From NCBI GenBank assembly GCA_018992685.1, contig JACVGT010000011.1:160001-224000 (forward strand): a DNA stretch of 64,000 nucleotides. The letters are read 5' to 3'. Of the stretch, positions 25,135 through 27,195 are shown piece by piece. Position 1 is the first letter of the stretch. Each line of letters begins with the position of its first letter. Position numbers and translations under genes: made by a program. The stretch comes from Theionarchaea archaeon. Lineage in GTDB: Archaea > Methanobacteriota_B > Thermococci > Methanofastidiosales > SZ-28-30. Below the pieces are notes generated by a model. The model did not search any database and was not told the origin of the DNA. It saw nothing but the letters and a program-made list of their open reading frames with translations.

Positions 25135-26037
25135 TCAGGTCAAAAACAGGAGCAGTACTGTCAGTGAACCGATGCTGGCTATGGTAGATGTCAGAACTGC
25201 ACTGGAAACAAATCCGGGTTCTGCATCGAATTCAATGGCAATCAAGACAGAATTAATGGCCGTAGGCATGGAACATTCAACAATCAAGATACTCCGCAAT
25301 ACACCCTCTATTCCCATTAAACTGGTGAGAGCAACGCCGATAAGAGGAGATAGCCCCAATCGCAAGATATTAACCAGTAAGAGTGATTTGAAATCTTTGT
25401 TCATATGCGTATTGCAGAGTTGAATACCCAGAAGCACCATGCACACGGGGATGGCGGCAGATCCCAGGAGGCCGACTGATTTTCCCACGAAAGAGGGAAC
25501 TTCTACATGGAGTGAGCTGATGAGAGATGCTATTACTACTGCATATATGAGTGGGATTTTGAATACGTTCAGAAAGGACTCCTTGAAGCTGGACTTACCC
25601 CTAGATGCGATGTACACGGCAAGCGTGTACATGATGATTGATCCATACATCATGTAGGCCAGCGCACTGATTGTTCCTTCTTCACCAAAGGCAAAGGTGC
25701 ACAAGGGGACGCCATAGTTGCCTGAGTTGGTAAAGAGGACTGACAGGAGGAATGCACTCTCTACAGTCTTCTCCAGATTGAGAAGTCTACAGGCTGTGAG
25801 GGATATGATGTAGAGGATTCCCGTAAACCCCACCACGAAGACTCCAATAACTGCTAGGCTGCCCAGGACATCTCTGTCTATGAACGTAGTGAAGACTAGC
25901 GAAGGAAGGAGGATATAGATACTGAGGTGGGCTATGGAACGTGTGTCCGGGTTCTTGGTCTTACCCAGCAGGACACCAATCCCAAATATAAGGAATATGG
26001 GGAAGAGTACGTCCATGAGCACCTGGATGAGGTCCAT
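25135..26037 (-). CDS. AEC (auxin efflux carrier) family transporter
   Basis: NSGNYGVPL; MPTA; about ten TM. Confidence 0.9.
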   Translation of the reverse strand: MDLIQVLMDVLFPIFLIFGIGVLLGKTKNPDTRSIAHLSIYILLPSLVFTTFIDRDVLGSLAVIGVFVVGFTGILYIISLTACRLLNLEKTVESAFLLSVLFTNSGNYGVPLCTFAFGEEGTISALAYMMYGSIIMYTLAVYIASRGKSSFKESFLNVFKIPLIYAVVIASLISSLHVEVPSFVGKSVGLLGSAAIPVCMVLLGIQLCNTHMNKDFKSLLLVNILRLGLSPLIGVALTSLMGIEGVLRSILIVECSMPTAINSVLIAIEFDAEPGFVSSAVLTSTIASIGSLTVLLLFLT

Positions 26038-26367
26038 GGGTAGGCGTTGTGATGGGTCTTAAAAAGATTGTGGGTATTCACTCCATCTTGCATGGTAAAG
26101 GACTGAGTCGTACCATCCGTATAATCAGAAATCAGGGAACGACAAACGGTAGTAGCGAATGGATCAGTCTTTACAAACAGCAAGTTGAAGTCAGAGATCC
26201 GTACGTATGCGTCCGGACATGAATCTTCATTTTATGTCCTTTTATTTTTTATTATCATTTCCATTATTCTTAAAAAGAAATTTTCATCATCATTCTAAAT
26301 GTCGTGTGCGGTTTTTTTATTAATTATCCACCGACTTTGAAATCGGGTCGCGAAATTCGCAGAGTCC

Positions 26368-26382
26368 GCAAGCTTTATAAAG
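26368..26382 (+). promoter_or_regulatory. BRE/TATA promoter with no convincing downstream ORF
   Basis: GCAAGC-TTTATAAA matches other promoters in the window; palindrome GCGAA-A-TTCGC at 26350-26360 just upstream. Confidence 0.6.
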
Positions 26383-26404
26383 AATGGAGCCCTCTACTTA
26401 TTAT

Positions 26405-26540
26405 AACTGGAAGGTACTGGTTGGAAGGGTAAATCCCCCCGAGGCTCAACAAACCATTGCCCCCATAACCTTCTTCTCAAACACTGAGGCCTCTCAGCGG
26501 AGAGCCCATATTCCAACTCTCCTTCCGACTTCTGCTTTTC
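26405..26540 (+). ncRNA. Candidate structured ncRNA of unknown family (about 120-135 nt)
   Basis: Nested pairings GGAAGG 26409-14/CCTTCC 26521-26, GTTGGAA 26420-26/TTCCAAC 26511-17, GGGT/GCCC, GAGGC-TCA/TGA-G-GCCTC; starts about 30 nt after TATA; pyrimidine tail; strand not certain. Confidence 0.5.
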
Positions 26541-26581
26541 ACGAGATACTCTCTCTGCTGGTGGGTAGAAGGTCATGATCC

Positions 26582-27058
26582 TCATTCTCCATCAAAGGTG
26601 AACAGATCCACGATCCTCCTGGCAGGCTCAAATGCTTTGCAAAATCGTCTCAGACCTGGTACTGCTTCAATCTGTCCCCTTTCATCCCTGTAGGCATGCA
26701 GTCCATCAGGGAATACCAGGTCTCTGCGATCCTTATTGGCGAATGCTACAATGACACTGACAATATACACTGTATTCTCCTGGGGATCGGGAAGGTTCAC
26801 CGTTTTATCATAAGATATATCAGTGATATCCACACCGTCAACAGTTTCGGAACGCCTCTCAGTTTCTTTCACTCGCGCCACCTTTCCACTTCGTGGAATT
26901 ATGATATCCTTTTCACCCTGTCGGATGACCACATCATGAGGGGTTAAATTTATGAGGACGGGTTTTTTCTTTTCAAAAAGGCTCTTGACTTTCTGAAAGA
27001 CCTTTGAAAAAAGGTTGAAAGCCTGCTTTGTGCTATCTGAAAACAAATCCCAACTCAT
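26582..27058 (-). CDS. NLTPH-motif protein, possible Crn4-like ring nuclease
   Basis: LINLTPHDV...IPRSGKVARV...LPDPQENTVYIVS...RRDLVFP...RDERGQI; TATA spacing favours a leaderless ATG at 27058. Confidence 0.6.
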   Translation of the reverse strand: MSWDLFSDSTKQAFNLFSKVFQKVKSLFEKKKPVLINLTPHDVVIRQGEKDIIIPRSGKVARVKETERRSETVDGVDITDISYDKTVNLPDPQENTVYIVSVIVAFANKDRRDLVFPDGLHAYRDERGQIEAVPGLRRFCKAFEPARRIVDLFTFDGE

Positions 27059-27195
27059 GACGAGATGTTCTTCCATGACATCTTAAAGGTTTCCCACCGT
27101 CCTTTCTCCCTCCTGACAAGGGGTTCACATCCCCTCTCACCGACCTGAAGTGGATCAGCACCCAACCCTTTTATGTGACGACTCAAACACTGATC

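Follow-up and report, generated by a model that had tools for sequence, protein, structure and literature searches.

A likely family of stand-alone archaeal genes for a 77-nt circular RNA released at a bulge-helix-bulge motif

The stretch of DNA analysed here (the window; 64,000 nucleotides) comes from a Theionarchaea archaeon (GenBank assembly GCA_018992685.1, contig JACVGT010000011.1, positions 160,001–224,000 of the forward strand), and positions are counted from its first letter unless another contig or locus is named. At 26038–26581 a gap separates two minus-strand genes, a Mem_trans transporter gene (25135–26037) and a gene for a 164-aa protein with no Pfam family (26582–27076), and this gap holds a small plus-strand element, called the ring gene below. 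An earlier note, made from the sequence alone, had proposed an unannotated noncoding RNA (ncRNA) gene with its own promoter at this place. That proposal holds: neither an Rfam match nor a tRNA was found, the overlapping open reading frames (ORFs) are not conserved, and the TATA box is. We consider it highly probable that the genome has three paralogous genes, each standing alone, for a small circular ncRNA made by the tRNA-splicing machinery, and that the window carries one of them.

A B recognition element (BRE) and TATA box can be read at 26368–26381 on the plus strand, the BRE being purine-rich and the TATA sequence TTTATAAA occupying 26374–26381. The hexamer TTTATA was invariant in all nine genomic copies of the element and was present upstream in 25/25 distinct loci compared, at ~22–24 nt from the stem in paralogue types B and C and at ~37–39 nt in type A, to which the window copy belongs. 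About 11 nt upstream of the BRE/TATA stands a dyad, TTGYGA-N3-TCRCAA (26348–26362, plus strand), which includes the palindrome GCGAAATTCGC at 26350–26360 and is a candidate transcription-factor site. The dyad was found at the same place in 9/9 distinct type-A loci, and in type A only; its arms were perfect over at least 4 nt in six of these nine, and they co-vary (GCGA/TCGC versus GTGA/TCAC). Both the promoter and the palindrome had been pointed out in the earlier note, and both are real and conserved, the one in all copies and the other across the nine type-A loci. As judged from these sequence features, the dyad is probably the binding site of a regulator of type-A genes, so that type A may be conditionally expressed. 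The spacing between TATA box and transcription start is established for archaea; with a start ~22–26 nt after the box and an end at the T4 run that can be read at 26536–26539, the predicted primary transcript spans 26405–26539 on the plus strand. T runs were found shortly downstream of the gene in most copies.

The plus-strand transcript can pair in a series of nested helices. The outermost, P0 (GGAAGG at 26409–26414 with CCTTCC at 26521–26526), is an extra outer helix confined to type A; it is part of the minimum free energy (MFE) structure and was kept in 9/9 distinct type-A loci. Next comes P1 (GTTGGAA at 26420–26426 with TTCCAAC at 26511–26517, so that the 3′ strands of P1 and P0 together occupy 26511–26526), which measures about 7–9 bp across copies and forms the outer helix (h) of the motif above it. 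P1 is followed by a central 4-bp helix (H; GGGU at 26427–26430 with GCCC at 26504–26507) with a 3-nt bulge on either strand, AAA at 26431–26433 and AUA at 26508–26510, and then by an inner helix h′ (UCCCC at 26434–26438 with GGAGA at 26499–26503; U26434–A26503, C26435–G26502, one C–A mismatch and two C–G pairs). Further in, P3 (GAGGC-TCA, GAGGCUCA, at 26441–26448 with UGA-G-GCCUC at 26485–26493), also in the MFE structure, encloses a 36-nt C/A/U-rich loop (26449–26484) that contains a single G, an invariant AUUGCCCCCAU block and a pyrimidine tract differing between paralogues. On these sequences the second and third helices together with the AAA and AUA bulges read as a canonical archaeal bulge-helix-bulge (BHB) splicing motif. 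The earlier note had described a structured RNA with four nested helices around a nearly G-free 36-nt loop. Its helices and its loop were confirmed by reading the sequence; it had overlooked the BHB, and the product in the RNA data is a 77-nt circle and not a linear hairpin RNA.

Papers cited by a PMC identifier are used for the available part of their text. A BHB is defined there as a 4-bp helix between two 3-nt bulges (PMC4090602), and the same source places anticodon bases 1 and 2 inside the BHB helix and the canonical intron one nt 3′ of the anticodon, from which it follows that the cut falls after the second nucleotide of a bulge. The intron of tRNA-Arg(tct) in the window's genome (an ARAGORN call) obeys the same rule. 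Applied to the window, the rule predicts cuts between 26432 and 26433 and between 26509 and 26510, and therefore a ring of exactly 26433–26509, matching the ends seen in RNA contigs.

To these ends bears the mapping of contigs from four metatranscriptome runs (X16, X17, X19 and X20) on 26200–26800. A 107-letter contig identical to the window and covering only 26433–26509/11 was found in X16, X17 and X20, which belong to three studies. In it the sequence runs from 26509 directly to 26433, stepping back by 77; two letters fit either side, which leaves the joint free to shift downstream by as much as 2 nt. Positions 26475–26504 occur at both ends of the contig as a 30-mer repeat. In the part of the Logan paper available, Logan contigs are described as built on 31-mers that are all distinct within an accession, isolated non-circular contigs of <150 bp as discarded, and circular ones as carrying a 30-mer end repeat. 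As 107 is 77 plus the 30-mer end repeat, the contig is circular, and the RNA from 26433–26509 of the plus strand, the excised 'intron', would exist as a 77-nt circle. A second 107-letter contig of X16 has the same junction and loose ends that read type-B letters, which identifies it as the type-B ring. All 29 genomic and metagenomic DNA loci showed a single linear arrangement with no tandem copy. No contig covered the gene flanks in X16, X17 and X20, which is not evidence of absence. Two further runs, X15 and X18, shared a small part of the sequence words and are given no weight here. On this evidence the tRNA-splicing enzyme appears to cut the transcript, and the excised piece appears to be ligated into a 77-nt ring; we infer that EndA and RtcB specifically do the cutting and joining. 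The EndA splicing endonuclease (PF01974, 108.6 bits) and the RtcB ligase (PF01139, 542.1 bits) are both encoded in the window's genome, at C12:10582–10833 and C19:58362–59645, respectively.

BLAST and a covariance model identified three paralogues in this genome (C3, the window copy, type A; C15, type B; C23, type C), and three copies were likewise present in each of the 3/3 sampled genomes of one Theionarchaea genus, giving nine genomic copies. In the remaining 130 of the 133 genomes of the class the covariance model found no other match, which is not proof of absence, bar one 25.4-bit hit (genome G026, L019) that is AT-rich and without a BHB and was judged spurious. Further loci were retrieved with an exact two-block pattern that fixes 22 nt of the ring. 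A scan of a species-genome collection with this pattern returned eight loci, six of them family members, and a scan of metagenome contigs returned 24, of which 20 were members; the non-members, two genome loci (a planctomycete and a Meiothermus record) and four metagenome loci (two distinct sequences), had neither a model hit nor the stem. No match to the pattern was found among viral contigs.

The ring measured 77 nt in 18/22 and 78 nt in 4/22 distinct rows, with eight distinct ring sequences. Type-A rings were 100% identical in 36/36 pairs of nine distinct loci, against 52% identity in the 40-nt upstream flank and 40% in the downstream one (ungapped means), and type-B rings were 99.5% identical, against 50% upstream and 31% downstream. 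Outside the ring base-pairing is kept and sequence is not, and conservation stops at the ring boundaries. Differences between the paralogues are concentrated in the ~10-nt pyrimidine tract (mostly C/U transitions) and in the P3 flanks. Folded by itself, the ring, in which 12 of the 77 nt are G (16%), is weakly structured at −4.9 to −7.0 kcal/mol, a level that shuffled sequences reach as well. By this pattern of conservation the ring, and not the stem, would be the selected product, and the folding predicts that the excised ring is a nearly unstructured C/A/U-rich circle in which one short helix, P3, is the sole one left.

The BHB itself is uniform across the family. All four pairs of the central helix were present in 26/26 distinct loci, and the helix appears in the unconstrained MFE of 3/3 paralogues; one of its pairs is U–G in 17/22 distinct rows and C–G in 5/22, and since a U–G pair is possible on the plus strand only, it supports a plus-strand element. 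The 5′ bulge was AAA in all 26 distinct loci except for AUA in one copy, the 3′ bulge was AUA in 26/26, though CCCAT was part of the search pattern, and the arrangement of the inner helix (U–A, C–G, mismatch, C–G, C–G) was the same in 26/26. P1 had at least six consecutive pairs in 23/26 distinct loci; of the remaining three, two belong to type A, with P0 as an additional helix, and one (L044) appears degenerate. Compensatory double changes were found in 4/7 P1 pairs (27 cells; UUGGAA/UUCCAA, UUGGGA/UCCCAA and CCGGGA/UCCCGG), and the covariation score was 0.236 versus 0.172 for shuffles, a value reached by 0/500 shuffles, with slid controls at most 0.13 and a smaller alignment in agreement. 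P3 showed one-sided compatible changes only (C–G to U–G, and bulge shifts in two variants), which is weak support; its covariation counts were lowered by a one-column misalignment of the type-B rows.

Folding energies were less distinctive. The earlier note had left both strands as candidates for folding. The plus-strand precursor (26405–26532) has an MFE of −37.5 kcal/mol (z −2.32, 4/200 shuffles as good) versus z −0.86 for its minus strand, and a longer span (26405–26545) gives z −2.38 and −0.27, respectively. Thermodynamics alone is only modestly above chance. The unconstrained MFE of 3/3 paralogues contains P1 and, next to it, the 4-bp helix between its two 3-nt bulges (z −2.32, −2.32 and −4.00). 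The feature is regarded as real because it is conserved, with nine copies in three genomes, compensatory changes in P1 and TTTATA in every copy.

These observations can be assembled into a proposed biogenesis. The TATA/BRE promoter would drive a ~130-nt transcript, with the upstream dyad of type A probably binding a regulator. The ends of the transcript would pair into a long stem, P0 and P1, whose top would present the canonical BHB: GGGU/GCCC (4 bp), flanked by the 3-nt bulges AA|A on one strand and AU|A on the other, with the inner helix beyond it. EndA would then cut after the second nucleotide of each bulge, RtcB would close the excised 77 nt (26433–26509) into a ring, and leader and trailer would be left as a small hairpin whose sequence is not conserved.

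The element is not a tRNA, a C/D RNA or an H/ACA RNA. Rfam 15 gave no match at the gathering score across the whole window, scanned as linear sequence, and at E ≤ 10 on 25900–26800 it returned noise, the best hit being 17 bits against thresholds of 40–80. ARAGORN called no tRNA in the window, and when the ring of each of the three paralogues was doubled it called neither a tRNA nor a tmRNA. The C/D consensus consists of box C (RUGAUGA) and box D (CUGA); TGATGA was absent from 8/8 distinct rings, CTGA was missing from type B, and no Rfam C/D family matched. The earlier note, too, had seen no resemblance to a tRNA, 5S, SRP, C/D or H/ACA RNA.

The genes around the ring gene differ between loci. 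The 164-aa protein has an 85% identical homologue in one sister genome and was not found by tblastn in the other 31 loci searched, and its gene adjoins the ring gene only in the window's genome (G000) and one other genome. The Mem_trans gene is divergent from the type-A ring gene in the window and in L028, L032 and L047. Type-A and type-C ring genes converge on their downstream genes; beside type C this is a gene for a 144-aa protein (L013, 1718–2152, minus strand) with weak winged-helix-like Pfam matches (TrmB 0.003, FeoC 0.006), arranged likewise in all eight further type-C loci retrieved. Downstream of the type-B ring gene, by 165–254 nt and on the same strand, stands a KaiC-like ATPase gene (PF06745, E 2e-51; L009, 1731–2519) in 8/9 further type-B loci. 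This ATPase gene carries a promoter box of its own, a conserved CTATAAATATTG ~25–30 nt before its ATG, and in several loci T runs follow the ring gene. The convergence of types A and C on their downstream genes, the TATA box in every copy and the separate promoter of the KaiC-like gene together argue that the ring gene is an independent gene.

A genome-wide BHB scan of the window's genome returned 7377 raw hits, 970 of them with an outer helix of at least 7 bp and a ring of 40–200 nt; a TATA-like hexamer 12–45 nt upstream was present in 24 of these 970, and three of the 24 are the ring genes. The scan recovered 4/8 short tRNA introns and is accordingly insensitive. The best candidate besides these, a hairpin at C5:175063–175143 (L063/L064), shows perfect BHB geometry, with a 9-bp outer helix, GAGG/CCTC and a 56-nt ring, and has TTTAAA 23 nt upstream. 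Rfam gave no match to it, and since the G001 orthologue has lost the stem pairing, the hairpin is probably due to chance or species-specific and was rejected. The scan also surfaced a perfect inverted repeat with arms of >110 bp in the first ~330 bases of contig C2, at the very contig end, which probably reflects either faulty assembly or the hairpin terminus of a mobile element. In the same genome ARAGORN calls three tRNAs with large introns (tRNA-Cys C1:312979–314527, 1455 nt; tRNA-Met C5:74994–75635, 551 nt; tRNA-Glu C16:44697–46888, 2098 nt), which may be false calls or may represent gene-carrying large BHB introns.

Several points weigh against the interpretation as a gene for a BHB-excised circle. 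The RNA evidence consists not of raw reads but of assembled contigs, which give neither strand nor ends nor abundance. In run X19 the sole contig is a linear one of 233 letters, derived from the type-A copy of a relative, that covers the 3′ half of the gene and runs past it; this contig may be precursor, read-through, antisense RNA or DNA. The case against a DNA tandem copy as the source of the joint rests on the 29 loci mentioned above. The loci from the pattern scans were retrieved by a pattern that fixes 22 of the 77 ring nt and leaves the other 55 free, so that citing the conservation of those 22 in these loci would be circular reasoning; the AUUGCCCCCAU block was imposed in this way on the pattern-scan loci and not on the nine genomic copies found by BLAST and the covariance model. 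The MFE uses a register of the inner helix shifted by 2 nt, the canonical register costing 1.7–2.0 kcal/mol more, and as the inner helix is invariant and the changes in P3 are one-sided, covariation supports neither. The minus-strand z-scores of types B and C (−2.25 and −2.83) are as good as the plus-strand values, and the strand call consequently rests on the TATA box and the G–U pairs. Finally, no partner or target of the ring rose above chance, which leaves its function to conjecture.

How the circle came about can be explained in other ways. The gene might encode an ordinary linear trans-acting small RNA (sRNA), with the ~130-nt hairpin as the active form and the circles as minor by-products of processing or degradation, or as cDNA artefacts. 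In favour of this, X19 has a linear contig over the 3′ half, contigs cannot give a ratio of circular to linear forms, and the circles reported for many ncRNAs of archaea may be by-products (PMC3326292, PMC12558985, in the parts available). We regard this as improbable, because in three studies, and for two paralogues, the joint coincides exactly with the two cut sites of a canonical BHB, conservation stops at the ring boundaries with the outer stem keeping its pairing only, and nearly all of the folding energy comes from the stem. That the ring is made by enzymes other than EndA and RtcB has precedents in C/D box sRNAs of the same class, which an Rnl-dependent pathway circularises (PMC9014305), and in circular RNAs without a BHB (PMC12558985), as the available text of these papers has it. 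The presence of a canonical BHB in 26/26 loci with predicted cuts equal to the observed ends, the lack of box C from every ring variant and the lack of CUGA from type B make it very improbable. The chance is slighter still that the ring is an intermediate of a permuted known RNA, on the model of permuted tRNA genes or the permuted SRP RNA, and is re-opened elsewhere into a functional linear molecule: its 77 nt are the size of a tRNA, and BHB-mediated circular intermediates of permuted genes are known (PMC3218864, PMC3978253 and PMC4731332, in part), but ARAGORN detected no tRNA or tmRNA in the doubled rings, and a sequence that has only 12 G among its 77 nt and forms one short helix cannot fold into a cloverleaf.

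Two more alternatives concern the surrounding coding sequence. The earlier note had considered a 3′ untranslated region (UTR) element of the minus-strand 164-aa gene, and another possibility is that the element belongs to the 5′ leader of a downstream mRNA, as a BHB intron. The minus strand can fold, type B stands 165–254 nt upstream of the KaiC-like gene on the same strand in 8/9 further loci, and a BHB intron in a Haloferax 5′ UTR is described in the available part of PMC7714728. With the type B and C paralogues beside other genes and the 164-aa gene adjoining the ring gene in two genomes only, the 3′-UTR version is not supported; the plus-strand TATA box is conserved in all copies and the U–G pair forms on the plus strand only. 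The 5′-leader version is countered by the KaiC-like gene's own CTATAAATATTG box, the T runs after the ring gene in several loci and the convergence of types A and C on their downstream genes, so that a cis element of either kind has a marginal probability. A small protein gene, one of the overlapping 63-aa and 64-aa ORFs, has next to none. In types A and B one frame of the plus strand crosses the ring without a stop and yields similar peptides, but over 23 loci the ORFs at the element varied between none and 104 aa (plus strand) and between 10 and 79 aa (minus strand), a +1 and a −1 indel occur in type C, and neither ORF matches Pfam. The ATG of the 64-aa ORF (26384) lies 3 nt after the TATA box and hence upstream of any plausible transcript start, and conservation ends at the ring boundary, not at an ORF boundary. 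The earlier note, too, had seen no credible ORF here.

With the circular product as the preferred reading, its role was approached through possible partners. The earlier note had suggested that the loop might act as a guide, a protein sponge or an antisense seed. When the three rings were compared by BLAST with the 3.03-Mb genome in minus orientation, no target exceeded chance: the best complementarity extended over 15 nt (E 0.21) or, with one mismatch, over 19 nt (E 0.21), and five complementarity sites that were inspected lie in unremarkable places. Duplexes of the rings with the 16S rRNA of a sister genome were matched by 4/40, 8/40 and 5/40 mononucleotide shuffles and were unrealistically long. 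The assembly of the window's genome (3.03 Mb, 91% complete) has no 16S rRNA gene by RF01959, and both sister genomes have one.

Proteins encoded next to the ring genes are 66–85% identical between loci where the ring is invariant. Such invariance of the whole ring resembles the constraint on a ribonucleoprotein (RNP) RNA more than that on seed-type regulators, and a protein-bound ring is therefore favoured. There is perhaps a little less than an even chance that the ring serves as a nuclease-resistant single-stranded binding platform for a protein partner; that it is a base-pairing regulator of purine-rich, Shine-Dalgarno-like RNA seems rather unlikely. The ligation junction, ...GCCCAU|AUCCCC..., resembles the invariant GCCCCCAUAACC of the large loop. 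We tentatively suggest that ligation creates a second GCCC(CC)AUA(A/U)CC block, so that the closed ring alone would have two sites flanking a short stem for a partner, that the three paralogues are sub-functionalised and differ mainly in the pyrimidine tract, and that these would be the first described archaeal genes solely making a functional small circular RNA.

If this is confirmed, the splicing endonuclease would have a general role in the maturation of a class of RNAs that are regulatory or belong to RNPs, and uncultured sediment archaea would rely on ultra-conserved circular RNAs. The combination of TATA box, stem, BHB and a ring of <100 nt offers a searchable signature for ring genes in other archaea, and the ring gene is a natural minimal cassette for small RNA rings. 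The biogenesis of the ring is well supported; its pathway is of a known kind, and the gene class is a variant not previously described. A literature search returned no promoter-driven gene family with a BHB-excised ring as its sole conserved product, supplementary tables, which possibly list comparable circles, lying outside the search; nor did it turn up any work on Theionarchaea RNAs.

Both tRNA introns and pre-rRNAs are documented sources of BHB-dependent circles. Archaeal tRNA introns are excised at a BHB and circularised, and that of tRNA-Trp carries a C/D box sRNA. The ring genes have the BHB geometry, the predicted cut positions and, presumably, the enzymes (EndA and RtcB) in common with them, and in both cases excision would give a stable circle with the potential to be a functional RNA; the 'exons' left behind by the ring gene would even form a 7-bp stem with a 7-nt loop, as in a tRNA anticodon arm. 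In contrast to these introns, no tRNA surrounds the ring, the transcript starting a few nt before the stem and ending shortly after it, and the 'intron' is the only conserved product. Unlike the tRNA-Trp introns, the ring has no C/D boxes, and it shows no similarity to the two tRNA-Trp introns of the window's genome. The circles of rRNA operons resemble the ring in that a long stem of 5′ and 3′ flanks with a BHB at its base releases a circle, but they are >1 kb and are re-opened in most species, whereas the ring has 77–78 nt and comes from monocistronic genes.

Other circular RNAs of archaea and animals share single traits with the ring, as far as the available text of the papers goes. Sulfolobus has circular ncRNAs of unknown function, with no BHB stated in that part of PMC3326292, and haloarchaea have circular IS200/IS605-associated RNAs without a BHB (PMC12558985). 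The tRNA intronic circular RNAs (tricRNAs) of metazoans (PMC4536317) are likewise stable circular ncRNAs from the tRNA-splicing machinery, but they are by-products of real tRNA genes in animals. The permuted, circularised signal recognition particle (SRP) RNA of Thermoproteus tenax (PMC4731332) is a functional ncRNA that in its mature form is a circle made by the tRNA-splicing endonuclease at a BHB, as proposed for the ring; it is a rearranged universal RNA with known protein partners, whereas the ring matches no known family. A systematic screen in Haloferax found only seven BHB-flanked circular RNAs, none of them a stand-alone gene in the part of PMC7714728 available. The BHB intron in the 5′ UTR of Haloferax volcanii HVO_1309 described there is, as proposed for the ring gene, a non-tRNA, non-rRNA BHB substrate that yields a circle, but it lies within an mRNA leader, whereas the ring genes have their own promoter, three paralogues and an ultra-conserved ring.

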